The translations under genes and the position numbers were made by a program. Below are positions 15,124 through 38,140 of a DNA stretch of 64,000 nt, in pieces. The DNA is from Candidatus Latescibacterota bacterium (GTDB lineage Bacteria; Latescibacterota; UBA2968; UBA8231), in assembly GCA_965261395.1 (NCBI GenBank), contig OZ253462.1, forward strand, positions 6,336,001 to 6,400,000, in the 5' to 3' direction. The notes beneath the pieces were generated by a model, which was not told where the DNA came from, ran no database searches, and saw nothing but the letters and a program-made list of their open reading frames with translations. Position 1 is the stretch's first letter; the number at the start of each line of letters is the position of its first letter.

Positions 15124-16055
15124 GAAGCCGTCTGAAAACTATATTTTTTCTATTTGATCCGTTTGAGCAGCAAGTGGATCATAGCAATCTGGATCAAGGC
15201 TTCGCTATGGTGGGTCAACACCTCATAATCTCGGGCATGTCGGCGAAAATTCATCAACCACGCAAACGTGCGCTCGACGACCCAACGGCGTGGTAACACC
15301 TCAAAGCCGGGGCCTTGTTTGGCGACGACTTCCAAGTCTATTTTGTGCGTCTTTTTTACGTTAGCCACCCACGTTCGGATCGGATCGCCTCGATAGCCGC
15401 CATCGCCCCACAGTTTGCGTAACCGGGCTACGCCGGAGGCCCCCAAGCGGGTCAACACCTGCTTGAGGCCGTCCCGATCCTCTACATCGGCGGCGGTGAC
15501 CACCACCTGTCTAAGCAAGCCCGAGGTGTCGACCAACAGATGACGCTTGCGCCCCTTGACCTTTTTTCCGGCGTCATAACCGGTTGTTTTACCATGGGTT
15601 GCCGTCTTGATCGTCTGACTATCGACTACGCCAGCCGACGGCGTTGGAGCCCGTCCGTTGAGGCGGCGTTCCCGCTGGGTGAGTCGATCCAATACCTGCG
15701 GCCAGACCCCTTGTAGACTCCAGCGACGAAAGTAATCATACACCGTTTTCCACGGTCCAAAACAAGAAGGCAACAAAGCCCAAGGACAACCGGTCTTGGT
15801 CAGATACAAAAGGCCGTTGACGATCTGGCGTCGATCCCGCGGTGGCCGACCCGGACCGTTCGGCTGCCATGTCGAAGCCGGCAGCAACGGTTCGATCCGA
15901 CGCCATTGCACATCGGTTACATCGGTGGCATATTGCCTACTAGGCGTACTCATCATACGAGCCTTTCTGTTCAGATTTTGTCGCGAAACCTGAATATGGC
16001 TCGATGAGTACGCCGATTCAAATACCGGCTACAGCAAGGGTTTTCAGACGGCTTC
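15124..16055 (-). mobile_element. IS5 family (IS1031-like) insertion sequence, 932 bp
   Basis: Perfect 16-bp TIR GAAGCCGTCTGAAAAC / GTTTTCAGACGGCTTC; 3-bp target duplication TCA at 15121-15123 and 16056-16058. Confidence 0.93.
15150..15956 (-). CDS. IS5 family transposase
   Basis: GYDAGKKVKGRKRHLLVD, DGGY and RRWVVERTFAWL motifs. Confidence 0.95.
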   Translation of the reverse strand: MMSTPSRQYATDVTDVQWRRIEPLLPASTWQPNGPGRPPRDRRQIVNGLLYLTKTGCPWALLPSCFGPWKTVYDYFRRWSLQGVWPQVLDRLTQRERRLNGRAPTPSAGVVDSQTIKTATHGKTTGYDAGKKVKGRKRHLLVDTSGLLRQVVVTAADVEDRDGLKQVLTRLGASGVARLRKLWGDGGYRGDPIRTWVANVKKTHKIDLEVVAKQGPGFEVLPRRWVVERTFAWLMNFRRHARDYEVLTHHSEALIQIAMIHLLLKRIK

Positions 16056-22945: not shown

Positions 22946-23653
22946 ATGGGATTTATCGCAATAGATGATATACGTTCAATGCCCTGTTACAGCTTTCCCG
23001 AAGTTGCTCACTACCTGCGCATTCCCGTGACTACTCTTCGCTCTTGGGTGCGAGGCCGCAAGTATCCTACTAGCGAGGGAGACCAGTTCTTCCAGCCTGT
23101 GATCGAGCTGCCAGACGATAGCCAGAATCTTCTATCCTTTATCAATCTGGTCGAAATTCACGTGCTTGATGCCATTCGCCGCGACCATCGCATATCACTG
23201 CACAAAGTCAGAACTGCTATCGATTTTATCAAAGAAGAGCTAACGTCTGATCACCCTCTCGCATATCACAAGCTCGAAACCGACGGCTTGGACCTTTTTG
23301 TCGAGGAATACGGTCAGCTCATAAATGTTTCTCAGGCTGGGCAACTGGTACTTCGGGACCTGTTGCAGGCGCATCTGCGGCGCATTGATAGGGATTCGGC
23401 TGGTTATGCCCTGAGGCTATACCCTTTCACGCGCAAGCGCCTACAACTTATAGAAGAGCCCAAAGCAATCGTCATTGACCCTCGCATATCTTTTGGTCGC
23501 CCGGTGCTAGCAGGCACTGGGATTCCTACAGCTATTATTGCCGAACGCTACAAGGCTGGGGAGGCAATCGGTGCATTAGCGGACGACTATGGCCGCCCGA
23601 CGCTCGAGATCGAAGAAGCGATCCGCTGTGAGTTATACACCCGAGCAGCCTGA
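22946..23653 (+). CDS. DUF433 / HTH antitoxin (VapB45-like)
   Basis: N-terminal HTH, LSFINLVE, IDPRISFGRPVL...LADDY DUF433 motif. Confidence 0.85.
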   Translation: MGFIAIDDIRSMPCYSFPEVAHYLRIPVTTLRSWVRGRKYPTSEGDQFFQPVIELPDDSQNLLSFINLVEIHVLDAIRRDHRISLHKVRTAIDFIKEELTSDHPLAYHKLETDGLDLFVEEYGQLINVSQAGQLVLRDLLQAHLRRIDRDSAGYALRLYPFTRKRLQLIEEPKAIVIDPRISFGRPVLAGTGIPTAIIAERYKAGEAIGALADDYGRPTLEIEEAIRCELYTRAA

Positions 23654-23750
23654 TCCACTTGTTTTCTTTATCGACCGTTCTCTAGGGAAGAAGACGATTG
23701 CCGATGCCCTCAAGCAAGAGGGCGCTATAATCTTGGGGATCACCCCTTAG
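23628..23750 (+). pseudogene. Truncated PIN-like toxin (VapC45-like)
   Basis: GTG start overlaps the antitoxin end; ...PLVFFIDRSLGKKTIADALKQEG then a stop after 40 aa. Confidence 0.7.
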
Positions 23751-24047: not shown

Positions 24048-25568
24048 ATGACCGTGCTTCTCGTTGTACTCGCGCTGACGTTGGCCGCTTGTAGCAGTCA
24101 AGAAAGCATCACCGCGCCCGTCCAAACACACCCACAGGCGGCCAAGTCGGGAGAAGCGGCTCTATCAGAAGGGTCAGCGGCTACGGATCGGGCCACGCTG
24201 GTGGATCTCTATGAGACGACTACCAGCAGCGACTTCGGCTGGGATAATTGGCTTTGCAAGGGTTCCCTAGACCTTTGGGCCGGCGTTACTACGGATGAAA
24301 ACGGCCGCGTTAGGGGTCTCGACCTCAGCGACAACGAATTGCGCGGATTTATACCGCCCGAATTGGCCCAACTCGACAATCTGCAACACCTCGACCTCAG
24401 CGATAACGAATTGCGCGGATTTATACCGCTTGAGTTTGGGCAACTCGACAACCTACAATACCTCGACCTCAGCGATAACGAACTGCGCGGCGAGATATCC
24501 CTCGAACTAGGCAAACTCGACAATCTGCAATATCTCAATCTCTTCTATAACGAGTTATGCGGGCCGATTCCGCCTGAGTTGGGCAACCTCGGCAGCTTGC
24601 AATACCTAAGCTTCCAAGCCAACCAGTTGAGCGGGCCGATACCCCCCGAACTGGGCAAGCTCAAAAATCTGCAAATCCTCAACCTCTTCGGCAGCGGGGT
24701 AAGCGGACCGATTCCGCCCGAGTTGGGCAACCTCAGCAGCCTGCAACGTCTCGACCTCCTAAGAAACCAGTTGAGCGGGCCGATACCCCCCGAACTGGGC
24801 AACCTCAGCAGCCTGCAAGACTTGGAACTCAGCGAAAACCAGTTGAGCGGGCCGATACCCCCCGAACTAGGCAAGCTCGACAGCCTGCAATACCTAGACC
24901 TCAGCAGTAATCAGTTGAGCGGGCCGATACCCCCCGAGTTGGGCAACCTCAGCAGCCTGCAACGTCTCGACCTCAGCGGGAACCAATTGAGCGGGCCGAT
25001 ACCCCCCGAGTTGGCCCAACTCGACAGCCTGCAATACCTTGGCCTCAGCGGGAACCAGTTCAGCGGCTGCATACCGCCAGCCTTGTTTGACGTAGAACAT
25101 CATAGTTTGATCGGAACGGGGCTGTTCGCGTGTTTCGACGACACTGACATCGACCTCGTCACCTTATACGCCGCGATGGTTCCCAGTTTTGAACAAGGCT
25201 TCTTCGTGACGCTGAATCCCGCTGAACGGCCTCCCAATGATGTGATCGGCTGGATTGGAGGGCCGGGCGGTGGCGCTGTGGAAATTACAAGCAACAACTG
25301 GACATTTCAGGATTATTCGCCTGATGGCGAACTGAGAATCAACGGCACCTTAAGCGTCGGGATAGACCGGATGTCGATGTCGACTCCATTGACCGGGACA
25401 GTTGCCCTTACCCCGTCTGGATCAAATCCCGTCAAGCCCGTCGAGTTGATATTCAATATGGCACTTTCGCTTGGGGACGAAGGCTTTTCTTTTACCGGGA
25501 CGCTAACCATCAACGGCGCAGAATTTGACGTCGCGGAACTCTCGGCTGCTGTCGAGGCTGCTGGCTAG
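24048..25568 (+). CDS. Lipoprotein with plant-type 24-residue leucine-rich repeats and a non-LRR C-terminal domain
   Basis: Lipobox LAAC; N-cap DRATLVDLY...W.GVT; about 11 LxxLxLxxNxLSGPIPPELGxL repeats with 72-bp DNA periodicity. Confidence 0.92.
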   Translation: MTVLLVVLALTLAACSSQESITAPVQTHPQAAKSGEAALSEGSAATDRATLVDLYETTTSSDFGWDNWLCKGSLDLWAGVTTDENGRVRGLDLSDNELRGFIPPELAQLDNLQHLDLSDNELRGFIPLEFGQLDNLQYLDLSDNELRGEISLELGKLDNLQYLNLFYNELCGPIPPELGNLGSLQYLSFQANQLSGPIPPELGKLKNLQILNLFGSGVSGPIPPELGNLSSLQRLDLLRNQLSGPIPPELGNLSSLQDLELSENQLSGPIPPELGKLDSLQYLDLSSNQLSGPIPPELGNLSSLQRLDLSGNQLSGPIPPELAQLDSLQYLGLSGNQFSGCIPPALFDVEHHSLIGTGLFACFDDTDIDLVTLYAAMVPSFEQGFFVTLNPAERPPNDVIGWIGGPGGGAVEITSNNWTFQDYSPDGELRINGTLSVGIDRMSMSTPLTGTVALTPSGSNPVKPVELIFNMALSLGDEGFSFTGTLTINGAEFDVAELSAAVEAAG

Positions 25569-25574
25569 TAGGCC

Positions 25575-25721
25575 GTGCCGTTTTGGTGTTTGGTCGTGGC
25601 TCTATCCTTGTGCTGGGGCTGCGACCGCGGTCTCGATGCCGAGGTCGCCGAGCAGGCCGGAATCGCCGGTCGGCTGCACTCTGTCGGCGAGTGGCCCCGC
25701 GTAGGGGAAGTGGCCGTCTAG
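25575..25721 (+). pseudogene. Probable truncated lipoprotein gene
   Basis: MPFWCLVVALSLCWGCDRGLDAEVAEQAGIAG... stops after 48 aa, just before the lower-GC insert. Confidence 0.4.
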
Positions 25722-26085
25722 CGCGAAGCGGGCGGCAAGGGCATGAAATCTGGGCGAGAGTACCAGAATCTGACGGGGCTAGTTGGCCCTTCTATCCTCA
25801 GTAGTGTATCCGTTTGAAATTTAAGGGGTATCCCATATAGAGAGGGAGATGTGCGGCGTCAACGGCGTCTACGTATCTTGGACTTGATCCACAGATAGAG
25901 CACGATAATCAAGATGAGGAAAAACAGTTTTTCCTCTACTGTGTCAAATAAACCAAGCATAATTCCGTTTCCTTAGAGGACCCGACTGAAGCACGAGTTC
26001 TCCACGAGAATGTAAACGCCCCATTGTACGTATCGCATGGCAGGAAGGGACGCTGATGGTTCCAACTAGCCTACTACCCAAAATG

Positions 26086-26490
26086 TTAGCTCTCGAAGGT
26101 CTCTGGCCCTAGCCTAGGGACCCATTTAGCTTCCTTACTCAAGATGAGCCGAATTGCGGTTTCGTCACCGGATACAGAACTATGGGCGCGGTTATCAGGC
26201 TCAGGAGTATGGTCTACCTTGTGGCCATCAGCCCGTATAGGAGACGCAATAAAATCAACTATACCATTATCTTCGGGCACCTTGGCTCGATTCCTAGTTT
26301 CTTCCGGCGTCGCATACTTTGACCAATCAACAGATAGGTCGCCTCCTTGGAATCTGAACACGCTGCTTGGCAACTTGCCTAGGGGAATTTCTGCGGCCCT
26401 CACCGTGGCCATGTATATATTTTTATGGACGCGATAGTACAATCGAGCTGTATCGGGGATTTCTTCTATACCGTAGTTACTGACTTGCAT
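26086..26490 (-). CDS. Hypothetical protein, possible ADP-ribosyltransferase/RES-like fold toxin
   Basis: LYYRVH...F...LSVDW...NRAHSSV motif spacing; start overlaps the upstream gene end. Confidence 0.6.
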   Translation of the reverse strand: MQVSNYGIEEIPDTARLYYRVHKNIYMATVRAAEIPLGKLPSSVFRFQGGDLSVDWSKYATPEETRNRAKVPEDNGIVDFIASPIRADGHKVDHTPEPDNRAHSSVSGDETAIRLILSKEAKWVPRLGPETFES

Positions 26491-27136
26491 GGCTCATCCA
26501 GCAAGAGATATATCCCGGTTTAGGATGGCTATCTCCACGGATGGAATGCCCGTACGTGTCCTTTCCGTAGTAAGTTACATTACCGTCAGAACAGAAGTTA
26601 ATCAAAAGGTCAAAGTGTTCTGTCTGCCACTGCAGATCTATGCTGCCTCCACTAAATGGAACTATCCATACCTGCTTTACTGCTCTCAATTCAGACTCCG
26701 CAACTAGCTCGAAGAGAAAATCGCGAATAGCATCCAGTGTTTGTTTTTCAAAGGCCGGCGATCCCTCCCCATCCCAATCCTCTCCGAGAGCTAATATCCG
26801 TTCGTCAGCTTCATCTACAATTTTGTCAATGGCTTGCCTGTTGGTAAGTTTTATATCCTCCGCCTTCATCATCAGAATGGGCAATTTCCGCGACTGGACA
26901 AAAATATCCAGCGCATCCCGCACTTGGTGGGGGTCGTCTTCTACGAGGAAGACAGGATGGGAAACGCCCCCTCCCTGATGTTGTGGTGGTACGCGATCAT
27001 CCTCTAAAAGGATGCCAGGACAAGAAATAAAGTCGCCTAGCGAACGGACGGGATCGTCTGAATCGGACGGTCCAAGCAACTCCTGTGTGGGAGAGGAGTA
27101 TATTCGATTTAGGATTTCTTTGACGTTTTCAGTCAT
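26477..27136 (-). CDS. Hypothetical protein with DWDGEG...P..GGSIDLQW domain
   Basis: 219-aa ORF with ATGA overlap to the upstream gene; low-complexity N-terminus and globular C-terminus. Confidence 0.7.
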   Translation of the reverse strand: MTENVKEILNRIYSSPTQELLGPSDSDDPVRSLGDFISCPGILLEDDRVPPQHQGGGVSHPVFLVEDDPHQVRDALDIFVQSRKLPILMMKAEDIKLTNRQAIDKIVDEADERILALGEDWDGEGSPAFEKQTLDAIRDFLFELVAESELRAVKQVWIVPFSGGSIDLQWQTEHFDLLINFCSDGNVTYYGKDTYGHSIRGDSHPKPGYISCWMSHASQ

Positions 27137-27804
27137 TTCAAAAGCCTATCTAGTAGGGAAATGAAGAACGTCTGCTTTTCTGGCCAATGGCTAACGGCTT
27201 CTCGAAGAGTCGGGGCATCCATCGGCTCACCATATTCAAAGGCACCGTTGACGACAACCAACTCTTCAGGTTCAGATTCTCCAGTTGGGTCTCTGTACTC
27301 TCCCACTCGAATCTCTGCTTGACACAGTGCATCAACGGCCTCGAAGAACAACGTTGGGATCGTAGCGAATACTTTAGGCTCGGATTCATCCCCTAGCCAA
27401 GAAGGCAGAAATCGTTGGGCAATCCACGAAGTCGGATTTTCCTGCTTGATAGAAGCGCTGTAGCAAAGTCTTAGAGTTCGATATGGAAGAGAGACGTTTG
27501 ACAAATAAGCTTCAGCCGGCTTATAGATCGGGTAGTCCTCTTGAAAGGGACCGCCAATATATTGACCGATCTGGAGGCTTTCGGGATCCATTCTCCATTG
27601 AACGCCATTCTCATATCGCAGAACCGACTCTGCCAAGGAGGTTCTTGCACTCTTGATAATCCAGCCAGCAGGGACAATCTGCTTGGAGGCGAGGAAATCT
27701 GGAGTAAAGGCCGAAGGGTTGTGAGAGTTCGCGGAGATTTCGACCGTAACAAAATGGAGCAGATAAGGACGGTCTTGGCTGGAACCTTCATTTTTCATCT
27801 GCAT
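27133..27804 (-). CDS. Hypothetical protein, TIGR04255-like
   Basis: HNPSAFTPDFL...IVP.GW...YENG motif resembles TIGR04255-related proteins (recalled, not searched). Confidence 0.6.
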   Translation of the reverse strand: MQMKNEGSSQDRPYLLHFVTVEISANSHNPSAFTPDFLASKQIVPAGWIIKSARTSLAESVLRYENGVQWRMDPESLQIGQYIGGPFQEDYPIYKPAEAYLSNVSLPYRTLRLCYSASIKQENPTSWIAQRFLPSWLGDESEPKVFATIPTLFFEAVDALCQAEIRVGEYRDPTGESEPEELVVVNGAFEYGEPMDAPTLREAVSHWPEKQTFFISLLDRLLK

Positions 27805-28031
27805 TGAGTCCCGGGTCGCTTAGGTTTTCTTGGGTAGTTTTTGGCAGAATATGAACCGAATGACGATCATTGCGCGGTCAATGTTGGCTATTATTCAAGG
27901 TAGAAGTCTCCCCAGCCACGTCAAGGCTGACCGAACAGCCTCTTGTTTTCGACCTTTCCGGGGTGGAACCGCCCTGCGCCTCATTGCGGCGGATAGCCCC
28001 ATAGCCTCCGCGTCGGCACTCCATAAACCCC

Positions 28032-29788
28032 TCAAAACTGCCGCTCGCCGTCGATAGCGGCGTCCCAACGCTGCGAATAGAGGTAGTCCATCGCGGCCTG
28101 CGTCGCTGTGGGCGAGCCAATCTGTTGCAGGGCACTCAGCGCGAACGCGCCCACGTGACCGCAGGAATCGTCGAGTGCCCTGAGAAGCCGTCTGAAAACC
28201 CCCTGTCGGGCTGTTTTTCGGGTGGTCAAGCGATCTAGGCGTCGAGCGTTTTTCATAGGGCGAGACGCCCTCGATCCCAGCGGCTTGGAGTCAAAGCAGA
28301 GATCGAAACCCTAGTTTTCAGACGGCTTCTGAAGAGCTGGGCTTCTAACGGAGCAGCGGCTTGGCCGAGCTGGGCGCACGCTATTGCGGCGTTGGTCCGC
28401 ACTTGGTCACGGGGCACCCAACGGCGGCCGGCTTCCTCCCGCCAGTCTGGGCGGTCGGCCGAGAGCATTCGTCCTAGGGCTTCCACTGGTACGCCTTGCG
28501 CGATATTGCCCAGCGCGACGAGGGCCGTGCGCACTAGGCGATGCGAGCCATCTTCGAGGCTCCGCGTCAACGCTGGGACCGCTGTTACCGCGTGCGAATC
28601 CATCTCGCCGAGGGCAAAGGCGGCGTTGACTTGGGTCCACTCGCTTTCGTCGTCCAACAACGCGCAGAGCGCCTCGACCGCGGGTTCGCCAACGGCCGCC
28701 AGGGCCTGCGCCGCATCTTCCATGTTAGTCGCTCCCTCATTCCAGGCGGGCGGGGCCTCGGGTTGGTCGGCCTCACGCCCTGCTGCGCGCAACGCTTTGG
28801 CCAGCGTCGCAACCGCTGGCTCGCCAATCGCGCCCAGCGCGTAGGTCGCTGCCGTGCGCATGGCTTGGTGATCGGTGCTCAAGCACTCGACGAGCGTTGG
28901 CACGGCTGCGGCCGCATCGACGCCCCAGCCAGCCAACTGTTGTGCCGCCGCCAGCCGCTGTGCTAAATCCACCTCTGGGTCGAGTTGAGCGATGAGTGCC
29001 GGCACATCCCCAGCGGCCTGTGGCCAGCTAGCGTAGCGATCCCGCTTGCCGCACAGCCAGTCCCAAGTGTGCGCCCAAGCCAGTTCCAGATCGTAGGGGG
29101 AGTCAATGCGTTGGGGCTTTTGCCAGTGCATGCTTTTACAATCCCAAGTCGGTGCCGTTGGCTCGGAGGCCCGCATGTAGATGAACTTGATCATGTGCCG
29201 ATGCATCGGCAGCAGGCTGACGCCGGCGGCGTGGCCCACGTCAAAGTGCGTCAGCGACACCGTGCCAGCTCGGCCGGCCAATGGCAAGGCGCGCGCCCGG
29301 TCCTCGTCGGTCAGTCCGCGATTGAACTGCGTGCCCGGGATCACGTGCGTCGGCCCCAACTCGACCGGCGAATCCTGCGGGTAGTACATGATCCGCGCAT
29401 AGCGCAGATAGTGCTGGCGCGGATGGCCCATCGGCGTGTACCCATCCTGATGGCAGTTGCGGCGCAGCCTTTCCGCGGCCGCGGCCGCGGGCACGGGTTC
29501 CTCCGTCGGCTTGAGCGGATGGCAGTAGCGGTGCGGATGCTCCAAGTAGTTCGGGCCTAAGACGCTGATGAGCGCGCCGCGCACCTCGGGCGAGTTGAGT
29601 ACGTGGCGCATGGCGGGCACGCGCGGCAGGATGTTGTTGCCCGGATTAGGCTCGGAGTCGATGATTTGGTTGAGCCGCTCATAGCACGCTTCGTGCGTCC
29701 CCTCGGGCACGGTCGGCTCAAAGACCAAATAGCCGTTGACGATAAACTCGCGCATCTGCTCGTCAGTGAGCAGGATCGGGTCGGTCAT
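28032..29788 (-). pseudogene. Phytanoyl-CoA dioxygenase (PhyH)-like plus HEAT-repeat protein, C-terminus disrupted by a MITE
   Basis: LLTDEQMREFIVNGY, HQD facial-triad motif, HEAT repeats. Removing the MITE restores ...EAQLF-RALDDSCGHVG...GERQF*. Confidence 0.85.
28184..28329. mobile_element. 146-bp MITE with the same TIRs as the IS at 15124-16055
   Basis: GAAGCCGTCTGAAAAC ... GTTTTCAGACGGCTTC; TGA duplicated at 28181-28183 and 28330-28332; no transposase. Confidence 0.93.
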
Positions 29789-29822: not shown

Positions 29823-31718
29823 TCAAATCCGCACCTTCAGGGCCTCGGCCTTTAGCTGTTCGCAGCGGCGCGGCGCGTACGGGGGCTGTTGGGTCTCGCG
29901 CAAATCAAAGCCAAAGGCGCGCTTGCTCAAGACGATGACTGGTGGCGCTTGAATCCGCTTGAAGTAGTTGATCCGCACTTGGCGCTCCACCCATTCGAGA
30001 TCTTCGATCCAACGGCGCGCATCCGGGAAGTACGCACGGAAACACGCCGCATCGTCCCATCCCAACCGCTCTAGCAGCACGCCCTCTATAAACCACTGCA
30101 ACAAATCGCTGCTGTGCCGCCGGTATTCGATGAACTGCCGCAGCACGGCGTCGTGGTAGCCGTACTTGATCGGATCGCCCAAACCCTGCGTCACGTCTTG
30201 GGCCGCAGACAGCTCGGCACTGGGCACCACCGAGCCATCGAGCAGATTCTCCGGCACTACGGCGCGGCCATAGACATCTTCGTTGAGAAAGCGCGCCAGC
30301 GCGAAGACCTGCACCTTGTACAGGTCGGCAATCGGAGCCACCGCGCCGCTGATGTCCCCGTAGAGCGTGGCATAGCCCAAGGCGACCTCGGTCTTGTTGC
30401 CATTGGACGTGAACACGAGTCCGTATTTGGCCGCTAAACCGGCGAGCACATCGGCAAAGCGGATACGCGCCTGCACGTTCTCATCCACCAACCGCGTGTA
30501 CTCGCCCCGGCCCACGGAAAATTCCGCACCCTGCACGAGGGCGGCTACGGCCTCGTACAGCGATTCGATCGGACAGCACAGATAATCAACGCCCAGCGCA
30601 GCGCACAGCGAGCGGGCGTTGTCTTGGGTGACAGCGGCGTTGAAGCGCGTCGGCATATTGACCGCAAACACGCGCGCTGAGCCAAAGGCGCGCTCCAGCA
30701 GACAGCAGACCACGCTGGAGTCCACGCCGCCGCTCGTCGCAATGAGGAACTTGCTTTCCGCGCCGCGCACGTCATCTAGGTGCCGTAGCCCGGTGAGGAT
30801 GCCCGCGTACTGAGCTTCGATTTCGCTTTGGGGCGGCGCAATCTCTGCACGGCCCGTGAGCACGAGCTGTTCCCGCCACGGACGAGCGCGGCACGCGATA
30901 TGCCCGTCGGTCGCGTACGCAGTGCTGTCGCCGTCAAACACAATGATGTTCTTGCCGTTGTTTTGCGCCCCGACTTGGTTGACGTAGAAAAACGGCAGGG
31001 GTGAGCGCGCCAGTATCTGGCGCACCACGCGGTTGCGCTTGTCGCTTTTCTGCCAAGTAAAGGGCGAGGACGAGAGGTTGAATACGGCTTCAGCGCCGCG
31101 ACGGCGATACAGCGCCAGCGTGTCGAGGGGCTCACCGCTGTGGCAGTAGTCCTCGCACCACATGTCCTCGCACAGTTGCACGCCAAAGCCAAAGGACCTT
31201 CCGTCCTGGAGCCGCACCTTGTATGGGTGCAGCCAGTCCTCCAGCGACCGACCCTCGGCCTCGGCCAAGTGGCGCAGCGAGAAGAAGTGCCGGTCGTCGT
31301 CAAAAAATCGATAGTTGGGATGCAGGGTTTTGGGCTGGACGCCGCAGGGCAGCCCGGCGGGCACGGCTTCGCGCACCGCGTATTCGCCGTTGGAACACAC
31401 ATAGACAGCATTGTACTTGCGCCGCCGTCCATCCTGGCCCTGGTGGACGGGGTCCACCGCCACATTGCCAAAGATCACGGTCAACTCAGTGCTGGCCCGG
31501 CAAATCTCATCGCTGTACGCGGCAAAATCCTCGACATACGCGTCCATCTCCCACAAGTCGCCGAGGATATAGCCGCTAATGCACAGCTCGGAAAAGACAA
31601 CGATCTCAGCGCCAGCCGCCCGCGCCTGCTCGATAAAGGCCAGCATCCGCTCCGCATTCAGGTCGGGTCGCCCGGGCTTGACCTCCATCTGCACCAAGGC
31701 GATTGCGGGCAGGCCCAT
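29823..31718 (-). CDS. nadE: Glutamine-dependent NAD+ synthetase
   Basis: Nitrilase domain (FSEL, K, LCED) plus SGGVDS, ENVQAR, NKTE and GYATLYGD. Start at MGLPAIAL, overlapping the upstream TGA. Confidence 0.92.
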   Translation of the reverse strand: MGLPAIALVQMEVKPGRPDLNAERMLAFIEQARAAGAEIVVFSELCISGYILGDLWEMDAYVEDFAAYSDEICRASTELTVIFGNVAVDPVHQGQDGRRRKYNAVYVCSNGEYAVREAVPAGLPCGVQPKTLHPNYRFFDDDRHFFSLRHLAEAEGRSLEDWLHPYKVRLQDGRSFGFGVQLCEDMWCEDYCHSGEPLDTLALYRRRGAEAVFNLSSSPFTWQKSDKRNRVVRQILARSPLPFFYVNQVGAQNNGKNIIVFDGDSTAYATDGHIACRARPWREQLVLTGRAEIAPPQSEIEAQYAGILTGLRHLDDVRGAESKFLIATSGGVDSSVVCCLLERAFGSARVFAVNMPTRFNAAVTQDNARSLCAALGVDYLCCPIESLYEAVAALVQGAEFSVGRGEYTRLVDENVQARIRFADVLAGLAAKYGLVFTSNGNKTEVALGYATLYGDISGAVAPIADLYKVQVFALARFLNEDVYGRAVVPENLLDGSVVPSAELSAAQDVTQGLGDPIKYGYHDAVLRQFIEYRRHSSDLLQWFIEGVLLERLGWDDAACFRAYFPDARRWIEDLEWVERQVRINYFKRIQAPPVIVLSKRAFGFDLRETQQPPYAPRRCEQLKAEALKVRI

Positions 31719-32845
31719 CAGACCATCACGGGGACCCGCGCCTGATGGATGCACTCGGCCAACAGCGGCACGCCCTCGCGGATGGCCTCCAGCGAGGCAA
31801 AGCCAAAGGCGAGGCGGATGGCTGGCACGTCCTCGCGCTGGATGTGGAAACCCTGCCCCCGCGCCACCACAATGCCGCGCTCGGCGCACAGGGCCATCAG
31901 GCGATCGCGATCCACCCCTTCGGGGAACTCGATCCAGATGAACATGCCGCCCACGGGCCGCGACCACGTGCACAGGTCGCCCGCGTTCTCTGCGAGGCCG
32001 GCGAAAACCGCGTCGCGCTTTTCCTTGAGAATGGCGTTGGTCTCGGCCAAGTGCTGCCACAGCCGGTCGCGGAACAAGGCCGCGCAGCTAGCGGCTGTCA
32101 GCAAGCTGTTGCCCCCGTCGTAGCGGCGGTCGAGGATCCGCGCCAGCATGGGTGGCTGGGCCAACAAATAGCCCATCCGCACCCCAGGACCCAAAATTTT
32201 GGACAGCGAGCCGATGTACAGGACGTTGGGGCTGTCGTCGAGCGCGTAGAGCGCCGGCTCTTGCGGCCCCTCAAAATGCACATCGCCGTAGCAGTTGTCT
32301 TCCACCACTATGGTCTCGTAGTAGCGCGCCACTTCGAGCAGTTCGAGGCGGCGCTGCCGTGGCATGACCGAGCCGGTGGGGTTTTGGTAGGTCGCCAAGG
32401 TATAAATAAAGCGCGGCCGGGTACCTTTGCGGCGCAAGTCCGCCAAAGTGTCGACCAGCGCATCGACGCGCATGCCCTGCTCGTCGAGCGGCACCCCGAC
32501 CAGCTCGGCCCCCAACCGCTTGTACGCGGCAATCGTCCCGGAATACGTCAACTCTTCGGTGACGATCACATCCCCCGGACCTTCCATCAGCGCCTCGGCG
32601 ACCAGCGTAACCGCCTGCATGGAGCCGTTCATCAGCGCGATGTGGTCGGCGGACACGTCCACGCCCTCGCGCCGCGACTCACGCAGGGCCATGACCTCGC
32701 GCAACCCCTGATGGCCCATGTCACCGGGATAACGCACCAGCTCCGCACCCAGCTCGCGCACGGCCGCGCTAGCGGCCTCGGCCAACGCTTCCGTGGGAAA
32801 CGAGCCGGGATCGGTGCGTCCACTGCCAAAATCGTATGTGCTCAT
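31718..32845 (-). CDS. PLP-dependent class I/II aminotransferase (LysN/MocR-like, no HTH)
   Basis: YQNPTG, EDNCY and GSLSKILGPGVRMGY motifs. Confidence 0.9.
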   Translation of the reverse strand: MSTYDFGSGRTDPGSFPTEALAEAASAAVRELGAELVRYPGDMGHQGLREVMALRESRREGVDVSADHIALMNGSMQAVTLVAEALMEGPGDVIVTEELTYSGTIAAYKRLGAELVGVPLDEQGMRVDALVDTLADLRRKGTRPRFIYTLATYQNPTGSVMPRQRRLELLEVARYYETIVVEDNCYGDVHFEGPQEPALYALDDSPNVLYIGSLSKILGPGVRMGYLLAQPPMLARILDRRYDGGNSLLTAASCAALFRDRLWQHLAETNAILKEKRDAVFAGLAENAGDLCTWSRPVGGMFIWIEFPEGVDRDRLMALCAERGIVVARGQGFHIQREDVPAIRLAFGFASLEAIREGVPLLAECIHQARVPVMV

Positions 32846-32857
32846 AACATTCTCCTT

Positions 32858-33859
32858 TTAGAGTTCCAATGGCTTGAGCCGGGGGTTTTCAGTAAGCCCC
32901 GGTATCCGTCCCCGCTTGGCCACGGGCCGACCGTCTACTTCCTTGATGTCCGCAGTGAAATCTATCGCCGAGGCGGCACTAATCGCGCTGCCGACCCCAA
33001 AGGCATCCACCGGCGCTCTTGCCGCCCGGAAATAGCCAATCCGCTCGGCGTCCAAGCCGCCGGAGACCGCGATCTTTATATGGCTATGCCCGGCTTGGTC
33101 CAGTCGCGCGCGCACCTCCGCGACTAGCTCGGCTGTAACGCGACCGCGCTCGCTAGGGGTGTCCAGCCGCACGCCCCCCAGCTTATCGCCTAGGGCTTCT
33201 GCCAGCCGCAGGCTCTCTTCGGCTTCGTCCTTAAAGGTGTCAACCAGCGCGATGCGCTCAACCTTGGCGTCGATGTGGCGGTCAAATGCCTCGGCCGCCT
33301 TGAGCGTGTCGCCGAGGCACAGGATCAGGGCGTGGGGCATGGTCCCGGTTGCCTCAATGCCGGCGAGAGCGGCCCCTTGCGGAGTAGCGCATCCGACGCA
33401 CCCCCCGACGATGGCTGCGTATTCCATCCGGGCGCTGACCTCCGGGTGGATATGCCGAGCGCCGAAGCTGATGATCGGCACTCCGTCGGCTGCGGCCACG
33501 CACTCGGCTGCGGCCGTGGCCCACCCCGTCTCGCTGCTGAGCATTCCCAACAGCGCCGTCTCGTACAGCCCGAACTGCCGGTAGGGCGCACGGATCCGCA
33601 AGACGACCTCGCGCGGCTCGATCCAATCCCCTTCGTCCAAGCTCCACACCTCTGCCTCCTCGCCGAGTACCTGCCGCAAGAGGGCCTGCGCCTCGCGCAA
33701 GCCACAGAGCAGGGCGCGCCGCCGGGTAAACACCTCCATCGCCACGACCGGATTGAGCTGTTCGGCCGCGAGGATGTCGCAACTGCGGCGGAAGTAAATA
33801 TCCGCATTGTCGCCCGCCAGCGTCGCAGCCGAGGGCGCGTATGGGTCGCGCTCTGCCAT
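32858..33859 (-). CDS. pncB: Nicotinate phosphoribosyltransferase (NadC-like type)
   Basis: DIYF, SFGARH, GTMPH, LVDTF, VRLDTP, SGG and FGVGS motifs. Start at MAERDP overlaps the pncA stop. Confidence 0.85.
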   Translation of the reverse strand: MAERDPYAPSAATLAGDNADIYFRRSCDILAAEQLNPVVAMEVFTRRRALLCGLREAQALLRQVLGEEAEVWSLDEGDWIEPREVVLRIRAPYRQFGLYETALLGMLSSETGWATAAAECVAAADGVPIISFGARHIHPEVSARMEYAAIVGGCVGCATPQGAALAGIEATGTMPHALILCLGDTLKAAEAFDRHIDAKVERIALVDTFKDEAEESLRLAEALGDKLGGVRLDTPSERGRVTAELVAEVRARLDQAGHSHIKIAVSGGLDAERIGYFRAARAPVDAFGVGSAISAASAIDFTADIKEVDGRPVAKRGRIPGLTENPRLKPLEL

Positions 33860-34386
33860 CAGCGGTTGGTGACCTGTGCCCCGAGGATTTTTTCTATATG
33901 CCCCAAGGCCCATTCGTGTTGTTGGGGATCAAAACTGGCGACGCAATCGGCTGGCACCTCGACCGGATAGTCGCGGTTGCGCAGCCCGGCCACAGTGTGC
34001 AGGACGCAGATATCCGTGCAATCGCCCATCACCACGACCTTGTCCGGCGCTAGCTCCTCCAACATTGCGGCCAACTCGGTCTCGAAAAAGGCACTGTAGC
34101 GCCGCTTTTTGACAATCTGCGCGTCTTCGGCCAACGGTGCTAGCTCGGCGATGATGTGCTCTTCTTCGCTGCCTTCGATGCAGTGGGGAGGGAACATCTC
34201 GAACTCGCGGTCGTTTGCGCTGTGGCTGTCTTGGGTAAAAAACAGCGCGGCCCCAGCGGCTTTTTCGCGTTCGACCCGCGCGGCGATTCGCGGGATGATC
34301 TCCCGCGCGTGGTCCCCGCAGTAGAGCGTTCCGTCTGGGCGCATAAAGCCGTTCTGCATATCCACGACAATCACGGCATTAGCCAT
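33859..34386 (-). CDS. pncA: Nicotinamidase / isochorismatase family cysteine hydrolase
   Basis: VVDMQNGF, QDSH, PHC, KRRYSAF and TDICV motifs; NAD salvage context. Confidence 0.82.
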   Translation of the reverse strand: MANAVIVVDMQNGFMRPDGTLYCGDHAREIIPRIAARVEREKAAGAALFFTQDSHSANDREFEMFPPHCIEGSEEEHIIAELAPLAEDAQIVKKRRYSAFFETELAAMLEELAPDKVVVMGDCTDICVLHTVAGLRNRDYPVEVPADCVASFDPQQHEWALGHIEKILGAQVTNR

Positions 34387-36443: not shown

Positions 36444-36593
36444 ATGAGATCATCGACCGGCCGCTGGGTAAGCGGCGGCGACTTTTTCAATCGCGAGCGC
36501 GAGTTGCGGATACTGGAGACGCTCGGCCGCGACCACCATAGACCCCTCGAAAGCCGCCGTTCTGAAGACGAATCACTGGGAGACGCGCAATGA
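36444..36593 (+). pseudogene. Internally deleted ATP-binding protein gene
   Basis: MRSSTGRWVSGGDFFNRERELRIL is the typical pre-Walker A segment of STAND/AAA ATPases, joined to a short tail overlapping the next ATG. Confidence 0.6.
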
Positions 36594-38140
36594 ACAAATC
36601 TGATCGACCGATCCGCAAGTTCAATCCGGGAACGTTCCAATTCGACGAGGAGGTGAAAGAGCAGTTCGTGGTCAGAGAACGCGAACTCGACATCGTTCTT
36701 GAGGTCCTCCGTGGGAATATTGATTCTCCATCGTGCCAGCACGTTCTGGTCGTTGCGCCTCGCGGTCGGGGAAAGACTATGCTACTGGCTCGAGTCGCGG
36801 CGGAGTTGCGTACCGACCGTGAATTTTCTGGGGACCTGTTTCCGGTTCAGTTGATGGAAGAGAGTCACGAAATATTCAATCTCGCCGATTTCTGGCTCGA
36901 CATCTTGTTCTATCTTGCGCGGGAGAGCGCCAAGCACGATCCCACACTCGCTGGAGATTTGCGAGAGACGCACGCCGACCTGACCACTCGCTGGCAAGAA
37001 GAGGCTCTCGCGGACCGCGGCCGAGCCGCTGTCTTGGAGGCGGCGGCGCGGCTGGGCAAAAAACTCGTCCTCATGGTCGAGAACCTACAGGCGCTCTGCG
37101 GAAACGTGGACAAAAATTTCGGCTGGGAGTTGCGCGGCGCATTGCAATCGGAGCCCCAGATCATGCTGCTCGCCACCGCCACGAGTCGTTTCAAGAGTCT
37201 GGACGACGCGGAGCAGCCGTTCTTCGAGCTATTCCGGATAGTCTCTTTGGAGCCGCTAGCCACCGAAGAATGCCGTCGCCTGTGGCAGGTCGTCAGCGGC
37301 GACGCGGCGAGCGAGCACGAGATTAGGCCGCTCGAAATCCTGACCGGTGGCAGCCCTCGCCTTCTGGTCATAGTCGCCGAGTTCGCGCAGCACCGGTCGC
37401 TGCGCCAGTTGATGGAAGAACTGGTGATGCTGATCGACGACCATACCGAGTATTTCCGTGGTCACCTAGAGGTCTTACCCAAGGGCGAACGCCGCGTGTA
37501 TATCGCGGTGATCGACCTTTGGCAACCGTCGAGCACGGGCGAGATCGCGGCGCGGGCGCGCATGGATGTCCGACCCGTATCGACCCTGCTCGGCCGACTC
37601 GCCATCCGGGGTGTGGTCATCGTGGAGGGGAGCGGCAAGAAGCGGCTATACGCCGCAGCGGAACGTCTCTATAGCATCTACTACAAGCTACGGCGCGAGC
37701 GCGACGAGGCGGCCGTGGTAGAAAACCTGATCCGCTTTATGGTGGCGTTTTATGGGATGGGCGAATTGTACCATATGTCCGGGCGACTGACTTCGGAAGC
37801 AGCGGAGTCGAAAGTCATTCGCGAGGGAATAGAATATCCGGCCACCATGGAGGCGTTCCGCTCCGCGTATGCCGCGTTCCTACCTAACGACGAAATTACG
37901 ATGCACGAGATACTACGGCTTGTGCCTAACTTGATCGCAACCAGTGCGTCGGCGCATGAACTTGTCGATATCCTGTTGAGCGACAGGGACAAATCCGGCA
38001 CGTTAGTACCCCTCATCGTTGCCCTGCGCCAGCATACCGGCGAGGAGGTTCGTGCGCCTGTGGAAATCCTTGAGGTCGCGGCGGATATTCGCGAACGCAT
38101 CAAGGTAAGAGCGGCGAAAGATGCTCCCGTGCCTTCCTGA
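36590..38140 (+). CDS. AAA/STAND-like ATPase with winged HTH
   Basis: Walker A APRGRGKT, Walker B LMVEN, TGGSPRL, HTH STGEIAARARM...VSTLLGRL. Confidence 0.8.
   Translation: MNKSDRPIRKFNPGTFQFDEEVKEQFVVRERELDIVLEVLRGNIDSPSCQHVLVVAPRGRGKTMLLARVAAELRTDREFSGDLFPVQLMEESHEIFNLADFWLDILFYLARESAKHDPTLAGDLRETHADLTTRWQEEALADRGRAAVLEAAARLGKKLVLMVENLQALCGNVDKNFGWELRGALQSEPQIMLLATATSRFKSLDDAEQPFFELFRIVSLEPLATEECRRLWQVVSGDAASEHEIRPLEILTGGSPRLLVIVAEFAQHRSLRQLMEELVMLIDDHTEYFRGHLEVLPKGERRVYIAVIDLWQPSSTGEIAARARMDVRPVSTLLGRLAIRGVVIVEGSGKKRLYAAAERLYSIYYKLRRERDEAAVVENLIRFMVAFYGMGELYHMSGRLTSEAAESKVIREGIEYPATMEAFRSAYAAFLPNDEITMHEILRLVPNLIATSASAHELVDILLSDRDKSGTLVPLIVALRQHTGEEVRAPVEILEVAADIRERIKVRAAKDAPVPS

Follow-up and report, generated by a model that had tools for sequence, protein, structure and literature searches.

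A Latescibacterota three-gene locus pairing a minimal ADP-ribosyltransferase-fold protein with its predicted binding partner behind an exchangeable front gene

What kind of system is formed by three small, overlapping genes on the minus strand of a Candidatus Latescibacterota bacterium genome (assembly GCA_965261395.1, contig OZ253462.1)? The genes, here called A, B and C, occupy positions 26086–27804 of the 64,000-nucleotide stretch that we analysed (positions 6,336,001 to 6,400,000 of the contig; hereafter the window). A first-pass annotation had proposed an unnamed defence module resembling tripartite toxin–antitoxin–chaperone (TAC) systems, with a toxin of the ADP-ribosyltransferase (ART) or RES type. 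Our own reading, to which we give a probability of roughly 0.55, is a toxin–antitoxin (TA)-like module that combines a Tpt1-like effector dependent on nicotinamide adenine dinucleotide (NAD+), encoded by C, with a binding partner, encoded by B, and an exchangeable front gene, here A. The features on which the argument draws are the following (aa, amino acids).

27133..27804, minus strand: gene A, 223 aa, the first gene, from a small orphan family, in a variable 'position A' slot
26477..27136, minus strand: gene B, 219 aa, the middle gene
26086..26490, minus strand: gene C, 134 aa, predicted minimal ART-fold protein and putative NAD+-dependent effector
26861..27136, minus strand: N-terminal extension of B (residues 1-92), variable and present only with gene A
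26477..26860, minus strand: conserved C-terminal domain of B, ~130 aa (DWDGEG ... GSIDLQW ... LLINF ... YYG), predicted to bind C
26861..27860, no strand assigned: ~1-kb presence/absence unit covering A with ~55 nt of its upstream sequence and the 5' portion of B, from blastn against sister species
25916..25936, minus strand: terminator-like hairpin ~150 nt downstream of C, weakly evidenced

Linkage of B with C and the fold of C

The three overlapping minus-strand open reading frames (ORFs; 223, 219 and 134 aa) and their ATGA overlap were borne out both by the ORF list and by reading the sequence base by base. The ATGA at 27133-27136 is common to the stop of A and the start of B, and C starts (ATG, 26490) inside B, which ends at 26477, giving the two frames an overlap of 14 nt. 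The module is also, as first described, an insert of lower GC content, at 0.486 vs 0.639 in the nadE/PhyH flank, 0.563 in the leucine-rich repeat (LRR) gene on the other side and 0.582 across the window. A, B and C are real genes under purifying selection: compared with sister species, the ratio of nonsynonymous to synonymous substitution rates (dN/dS) is 0.14 for A (one pair, with locus L023), 0.18-0.38 for C (seven pairs) and 0.23-0.51 for the conserved domain of B (seven pairs).

The linkage of B with C reaches well beyond this genome. The locus set comprises 28 genome, 80 metagenome and 2 viral loci, the metagenomes and viral contigs having been scanned for the C family with a 12-sequence subset of its alignment, and yields 109 loci with a C ORF. 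B adjoins C directly upstream in 26 of the 28 genome loci found with the C family, the misses being L043, where C is a fragment, and L045; loci with the pair include Flavobacterium saliperosum, an Abditibacterium and three Promethearchaeota contigs. When adjacency was counted in the 98 of the 109 loci that have at least 450 nt upstream of C, an ORF with the B domain ended next to the C start in 95, all but L043, L045 and L119. One protein (P0133, 370 aa) is a natural B–C fusion, in which residues 121-233 match the B domain (E 5e-36) and residues 253-369 the C domain (E 2e-49). An alignment of 64 B sequences shows W170 to be invariant and A137, G164, D167, L178, N180, Y190, G191 and G201 to be conserved in at least 90%, yet B had no Pfam or NCBIfam match, its PDB sequence search was empty and the protein atlas gave unnamed clusters only for its domain.

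Complex prediction has B binding C. When C was modelled with B residues 85-219, the interface score (interaction prediction score from aligned errors, ipSAE) was 0.89/0.87/0.89 vs no more than 0.05 in three controls. Between runs, at least 93% of the 76-78 contacts are shared, and the predicted local distance difference test (pLDDT) of the partner is at least 84. The mark that we used for ipSAE is reached by 116 of 157 solved complexes and by 2 of 215 mismatched pairs, a calibration to be taken as rough here, where our own alignments were supplied. The predicted interface involves conserved motif residues of B and, on C, H22, helix 23-35, residues 39-46 and helix 109-119. Two small co-directional, overlapping genes with products predicted to bind each other make up the generic layout of a type II TA pair, and the coupling that the first-pass annotation saw is thus upheld by the adjacency of B and C, by their predicted binding and by a three-gene layout that is common among the loci.

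The C family is large, consists mostly of short proteins and matches nothing named at the sequence level. A word-indexed search gave 15 relatives, and a profile search of 1.84 billion cluster representatives gave 879 at E≤1e-3 and 435 at E≤1e-10 (clusters defined at 50% identity); of the 148 new matches listed, 139 measure 110-160 aa and a single one is longer than 200 aa. The C protein of the window matched no Pfam family at E≤1, no NCBIfam family and nothing in PADLOC at E≤1. Pfam found no match at E≤0.01 among 116 aligned family members save one chance-level DHO_dh, the Tpt1 family (PTS_2-RNA) being unmatched, and a PDB sequence search with C and the 116 members was likewise without a match. 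Conservation within the family is strong: S53 and W56 are invariant in all 116 sequences, and E9, I11, P12, R20, H22, F45, Y59, R86, V92, H94, P96 and H103 reach at least 90%, the polar ones among them with H103 in 115, H94 in 114, R86 in 112, H22 in 106 and R20 in 105. The motifs quoted in the first-pass annotation (LYYRVH, LSVDW and NRAH in C; DWDGEG and GGSIDLQW in B) are present and fall on conserved family positions.

Structure gave C a place that sequence did not. A 14-sequence alignment produced an unusable model (pLDDT 43.9), and the 116-sequence alignment a usable one (pLDDT 95.8, predicted template modelling score 0.89), in which R20 and H22 lie on strand 1 and S53 on strand 2, with H94 and H103 later. 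Foldseek against the PDB placed Tpt1/KptA in the top rows (E 0.05, probability up to 0.97); DarT, a RES-type toxin, TreTu and AvrPphF came next. A search independent of Foldseek aligned 48,161 chains, of which 119 reached Z≥2, 6 reached Z≥5 and none Z≥8, a value below which, as the search tool cautions, a match may reflect merely a common arrangement. Nearly all of its best 50 rows are ART-superfamily domains, and the top row is TkoKptA (Z 7.9, root mean square deviation 3.0 Å, 92 residues, chain residues 86-180 only). A second structural look gave 14 Tpt1/KptA entries at Z 6.6-8.2 (2.7-3.9 Å over 91-104 residues) and 23 chains in all at Z≥5, with CC0527, AvrPphF, the RES-type toxin, DarT and TreTu at Z 4-6. 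Sequence identity to the Tpt1/KptA structures is 10-14%, and in a viral structure library a phage 'putative RNA 2'-phosphotransferase' stood at rank 3.

We base the assignment of an ART fold on the uniformity of this hit list and not on the height of its scores. The part of PMC9503650 cited here divides ARTs into H-H-h, H-Y-[EDQ] and R-S-E clades; as modelled, C is a minimal ART-fold protein that is nearest to the NAD+ lobe of Tpt1/KptA, and not to RES or R-S-E toxins. The earlier suggestion of an ART- or RES-like protein is supported as to the superfamily and differs as to the branch. A shared ART fold does not by itself establish what C does.

The two-lobe architecture of Tpt1/KptA is absent from C, which at 134 aa aligns only to residues ~85-180 of ~180, that is, to the C-terminal NAD+ lobe, so that the substrate lobe is missing. 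This gives room to the main alternative, in our judgement a possible but unlikely explanation, namely that B and C are the two subunits of a split Tpt1-like enzyme, in which C would be the NAD+ lobe, B would supply the substrate lobe in trans and the complex would be the active form; its substrate might be a small molecule or the 2'- or 5'-phosphates at nucleic-acid ends, as for instance in repairing damaged RNA. The order of domains in the fusion P0133, B then C, is the N-to-C order of the Tpt1 lobes, the extensive predicted interface leaves most putative active-site residues unlisted, genes flanking the pair are mostly housekeeping, and the KptA clade is associated, in the cited part of PMC9503650, mainly with RNA repair and soluble ADP-ribose products. 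However, fusions also occur between toxins and antitoxins, and the fused Thermosipho DarTG (7omu) is itself among the structural matches of C. None of the 116 C-family members matches the Tpt1 Pfam family, and the sporadic spread, diverged multiple copies, low GC, transposase neighbours and frequent pseudogenes of the module typify selfish or defence elements and not repair enzymes. If B and C were a split enzyme after all, they would be a two-piece version of a known one and a clue to the role of bacterial Tpt1-like proteins.

The exchangeable front slot

In the TA-like reading the pair is preceded by a front gene, and in this genome that gene behaves as one unit with part of B. Ten loci (L018-L027) are syntenic with the window across nadE, the PhyH/HEAT gene and the module, and A is found in L023 only. 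By blastn, seven of eight syntenic loci (L018, L019, L021, L022, L024, L025 and L026) skip window positions ~26861-27860, that is, A together with the first ~92 codons of B, their alignments jumping from ~27861-28028 to ~26830-26860 between flanks that align at 90-93%; the eighth, L023, keeps A. The same association appears across the wider set, where the median length of the B extension is 62.5 aa if a position-A gene precedes B (n=32) and 19 aa if none does (n=24; Mann–Whitney p 2e-7 on de-duplicated loci, which are not phylogenetically independent). A and the extension have been gained or lost together, and loss in the sister species is the likelier direction, since remote three-gene relatives carry the long form.

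A itself belongs to a very small family. Pfam, NCBIfam (E≤1) and PADLOC gave no match, and among 5.8 billion proteins only five homologues were found, all at least 90% identical, besides a paralogue at 32%; the family is otherwise confined to this genome, in both of its module copies, and to one sister species (L023). Its PDB sequence search was empty, and the protein atlas gave unnamed clusters only, with a score below the recognition mark. The co-occurrence of families expected from the first-pass annotation holds for B with C (95 of 98 loci); the A family recurs in those two genomes only.

That annotation had also likened A to TIGR04255 proteins (NCBIfam 'sporadTIGR04255'), for which we took at least 30 bits against the NCBIfam model as the membership threshold. 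Neither A nor, at E≤0.1, its paralogue and its L023 orthologue matched that model, a six-frame search of the whole source genome gave no TIGR04255 match, and hhalign of A against TIGR04255 profiles of 3, 7 and 27 sequences returned probabilities of 0.1-0.2%, the A profile being shallow (Neff, the effective number of sequences, 1.6). By these three kinds of search, all made at the level of sequence, A does not belong to TIGR04255. The hunch nevertheless pointed to something real, in that genuine TIGR04255 genes occupy the same slot upstream of B–C at seven other loci (L034, L041, L042, L063, L078, L122 and L124; NCBIfam E 2.6e-28 to 2.8e-39).

A front gene is a common, varied companion of the pair. 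A same-strand ORF of at least 150 aa ends between -60 and +110 nt from the B start in 41 of the 70 loci that have at least 700 nt upstream of B, a count that includes one PhyH/HEAT neighbour (L018). Single-linkage grouping by blastp sorts these ORFs into a family of 27 (~214-277 aa), a TIGR04255 group of six, the A family of three, a group of three of the L121 type and four singletons; the group of 27 includes L078, which NCBIfam assigns to TIGR04255. Profile comparison by hhalign among the A family, TIGR04255 and the large ~220-aa family gave probabilities all below 1%, and Pfam and PADLOC searches of 28 position-A proteins returned sub-threshold matches only. The first position thus appears to be an exchangeable slot of which TIGR04255 is one occupant.

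TIGR04255 in turn appears to serve other partners. It is present in 24 of 61 relatives and in none of 14 control genomes, and at 20 further TIGR04255 loci (L129-L148) a B and/or C homologue lies directly downstream in nine, the other 11 having different small coupled pairs (for example 141+187 aa, 125+224 aa, and 150+192 aa with DUF7689). Pfam searches of 21 such alternative cassette proteins 3' of TIGR04255 gave one DUF7689 only. Because two small coupled genes regularly follow, whether B–C-like or unrelated, we suggest that TIGR04255 serves as a general opening gene behind which two-gene cassettes are interchanged. A PDB sequence search with TIGR04255-type proteins gave one chance-level match (E 0.23), and a full-text literature search on TIGR04255 found nothing.

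The front slot is also where the TAC model can be judged. Taken strictly, and by analogy, A would be a SecB-like chaperone that shields an antitoxin, B, from proteolysis, and a phage protein competing for A would be the trigger. The three-gene layout with an ART-fold effector fits this model; the variable extension of B, which co-occurs with the first gene, recalls a chaperone-addiction element; and CmdTAC, as portrayed in the cited part of PMC11618068, demonstrates that such logic works for an ART toxin. There, a SecB-like chaperone acts on an antitoxin with a C-terminal addiction region, and a capsid protein displaces the chaperone. In the present module, by contrast, the extension is N-terminal and it is the predicted C-binding domain of B that is C-terminal, the gene order differs (front gene, binder, effector, as against the toxin, antitoxin and chaperone of the TAC name), and the slot is filled by at least three to four sequence-unrelated families, where TAC chaperones, in the same cited material, are SecB homologues. 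Pfam recognised no SecB (E≤0.01) and no other family in A or in the 28 position-A proteins. We consider a strict TAC system improbable, and more so than a split enzyme.

Accessory behaviour, proposed mechanism and surroundings

The TA-like reading draws further on how the module is distributed. The source genome is a single 6.55-Mb contig and holds a second A–B–C copy in the same order (G000:C1:2127245-2128771; L128 10237-11769), with identities to the first of 32% for A, 51% over the C-terminal half of B and 43% for C, and with a GC of 0.453 vs 0.522 in the surrounding 19.9 kb. A DDE transposase, a DUF6602 protein and a DUF4429-SHOCT protein lie upstream of this copy, and a Metallophos protein paired with an 804-aa SMC-like ATPase (an SbcCD-like pair) lies downstream. 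Within the genus, 14 of 30 genomes carry a C-family gene, as do 20 of 61 relatives; phylum-wide the figures are 33 of 168 genomes and 9 of 49 genera. At three loci of 92 (L026, L027 and L034) C is cut short beside an intact B, and the converse, a broken B beside an intact C, was not seen in these 92 loci, sampling having centred on C; a broken C beside an intact B is no more than an indirect hint of a toxic C neutralised by B. An 88.8-kb IMG/VR viral contig (L126, 3446-5500) carries a full module of 287 + 228 + 164 aa next to a staphylococcal-nuclease-domain protein.

We propose that the locus is a conflict module built around an invariant two-gene B–C core. C would bind NAD+ and then either transfer ADP-ribose to a target or consume NAD+, and our leading guess for the target, by analogy with Tpt1/KptA, is a phosphate on RNA or DNA. 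B, translated just before C from an overlapping frame, would grip C through its conserved C-terminal domain and hold it in check or direct it. The front gene, A here and TIGR04255 or others elsewhere, might act through the variable N-terminal extension of B, as a stabiliser or as a sensor of a trigger, possibly of phage infection.

A number of observations weigh against this proposal. The structural scores of C are middling, and no Foldseek match in the PDB reaches E≤1e-3. The predicted interface names H22 and not S53, W56, Y59, H94 or H103; the status of the residues it leaves unnamed is uncertain, and occlusion of the active site does not follow from it. DNA-binding domains are common in type II antitoxins, and Pfam finds none of this kind in B. 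B–C persists without A in nine of the ten syntenic sister loci, which makes A dispensable for the role of the pair. [quoted passage not shown] Association with defence islands, a check suggested by the first-pass annotation, gave a weak signal: 9 of 28 diverse loci have, within their six nearest neighbours (109 proteins), a gene that we take to be of defence, TA or mobile type (GmrSD_N, McrBC with SIR2_2, PIN, Fic, N6_N4 methylase, PDDEXK_3, P63C, DUF5131 or DUF4062); this is a raw count, and the other neighbours are housekeeping genes. Searching plasmid and phage collections by tblastn with C and the family member P0123 gave no relatives, and the viral-contig scan for the C family gave only two loci, one of them weak. 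The data show the coupling of the genes, the modelled fold of C, the B–C linkage, one fusion, the joint variation of A with the extension and a sporadic distribution; contact between B and C is a prediction; and a toxic C that uses NAD+, its neutralisation by B, whatever A does and any part in defence are what we infer.

The alignment of 116 sequences also has no conserved acidic residue at the place of the classical catalytic Glu. That C is a non-catalytic ART fold, binding NAD+, ADP-ribose or a nucleic-acid end as a regulatory or sensing module, would agree with this and with its very small size (134 aa) and lack of a substrate lobe, but seems to us very unlikely, as near-invariant polar residues across so diverse a family are more typical of catalysis and Tpt1-type chemistry, with its phosphate nucleophile, is not known to need a catalytic Glu.

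Should the TA-like reading be correct, it would give a function to the C family (879 clusters), to its obligate partner B and to TIGR04255, and it would mean that the Tpt1/KptA branch of ARTs, usually concerned with RNA repair, has been recruited into TA-like conflict modules. An exchangeable front gene that co-varies with an extension of the middle protein offers a testable model of sensor swapping onto a fixed effector pair, and a module that spans several bacterial phyla as well as Asgard archaea is of broad relevance. A bolder form of the proposal, which we put forward only tentatively and think unlikely to hold in full, is that B–C represents a new, widespread class of conflict effector: a Tpt1-type NAD+ lobe would ADP-ribosylate RNA or DNA phosphate ends, would be held by B and would be armed via interchangeable front-end sensors, TIGR04255 being one such and driving other, unrelated two-gene effector cassettes as well.

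The immediate surroundings differ in two respects from the first-pass description. The neighbouring lipoprotein-like gene (24048-25568), described there as truncated, is a 506-aa ORF with 11 LRRs in which we noticed no sign of truncation, no dedicated test having been made; an LRR protein adjoins the module in an Asgard locus too (L042 3094-4245). Nor does the module abut the NAD operon: A is separated from nadE by a PhyH/HEAT gene (28253-29788) and by a HEAT ORF of 74 aa. In this PhyH/HEAT region (28032-29788) a 511-aa gene is overlapped by the 74-aa ORF, sister species have a single ORF of 535-549 aa, and blastn alignments with them break between 28184 and 28328; in this genome a split or a rearrangement may have affected the 3' end of the gene.

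Just upstream of the putative NAD+-using module, 29823-33910 encodes a glutamine-dependent NAD synthase (nadE, 745 aa) and nadC (QRPTase). We considered a functional tie and dropped it, because the arrangement is synteny local to the genus, the PhyH/HEAT gene intervenes and no NAD-synthesis gene lies beside any of the 28 diverse loci sampled; conserved in the genus and not seen in the other lineages sampled, it is probably coincidental. On the other side, 22946-23750 encodes a DUF433 + HTH_66 protein (235 aa), the end of which is overlapped by a 53-aa ORF without a Pfam match. DUF433 proteins are antitoxin-like, and these two ORFs may be a TA remnant beside the module. An IS4/IS5-family DDE transposase (15150-15953) and a 516-aa AAA_16 ATPase (36590-38137) lie within 12 kb.

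Regulatory signals around the module are faint. Terminator-like sites number 4 in 25500-28300 vs 2.7 ± 1.2 in shuffled sequence, a count not above chance; a promoter scan was not above shuffles and gave no promoter-like site upstream of A on the minus strand; and a tRNA search of 15000-40000 found none. Contigs from RNA libraries match the window without differences at 26148-26356 and 27593-27844 (X15) and at 26019-26184 (X17), and contigs of relatives (X19) span the B/C junction (26310-26681) and the A/B junction (27093-27825). These matches, from two identical and two relative-bearing runs, are a weak hint that the module is transcribed, as the libraries may contain DNA and the contigs need not be single transcripts; that 26896-27087 is uncovered by contigs in the four runs proves nothing. 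Runs X15 and X17, which gave the identical contigs, are labelled 'sponge metagenome', an origin in keeping with the number of eukaryote-like repeat proteins (LRR, HEAT) encoded around the module.

Comparison with known systems

The RNA 2'-phosphotransferase Tpt1/KptA, the best structural match of C, has the NAD+-binding ART fold in common with it and differs in possessing an N-terminal substrate lobe, C matching the C-terminal NAD+ lobe only. C differs from Tpt1/KptA further in its obligate partner gene B and in its sporadic, accessory distribution.

ART-fold effectors with neutralising partners are already well known. DarT–DarG, RES–Xre (VPA0770/VPA0769, 8gug) and ParT–ParS likewise place a small ART-fold effector beside a cognate binding partner, and they are among the structural matches of C at Z 3.3-5.4, below Tpt1/KptA. 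In contrast to the partners in these TA pairs, B is no macrodomain, Xre or helix-turn-helix protein by Pfam, which also gives C no sequence match to the DarT, RES or ParT families; here, moreover, the effector comes after its partner gene, and a variable third gene usually accompanies the two. TAC systems such as CmdTAC resemble the module in being tripartite and in having an ART effector, and depart from it in the position of the antitoxin extension, in gene order and in the nature of the third gene, as set out above. The effectors differ as well, C being closest to Tpt1 and CmdT having been aligned to exotoxin A in the cited part of PMC11618068.

The only catalogued relative is PDC-M32. The portion of the source cited here (bioRxiv 10.1101/2024.01.29.577857) lists it among 145 untested 'phage defence candidates' in PADLOC, which were compiled from genes found inside BREX, DISARM and type I restriction–modification loci, and PMC12429752, in its cited part, has PDC-M32 as a PADLOC match in Sinorhizobium prophages. 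PDC-M32A is matched by B-type proteins (window B at E 9.8e-5, its paralogue at 2.1e-7, L095 at 4.8e-6) over positions ~246-365 of 375 only, the last third of the profile, with residues 91-181 of the window B on positions 246-328. PDC-M32B is weakly matched by 9 of the 116 C-family members (best E 4.6e-4) and not by the C of the window. Membership of PDC-M32 requires both proteins to match, and here B matches partially, over 83 of 375 positions, and C not at all. Because these matches are weak and partial, PDC-M32 is probably a distant two-gene cousin and not the same system; the first-pass view of the module as unnamed stands in so far as no catalogue entry matches it in full, and is qualified by these partial matches.

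TIGR04255 proteins, finally, share with A the slot upstream of B–C, a similar length and a sporadic distribution, and A differs from them in having no TIGR04255 score. Set against these systems, what the module offers that is new is two families, C and B, a pairing of them that stays invariant from bacteria to Asgard archaea, and a modular front slot that includes TIGR04255.

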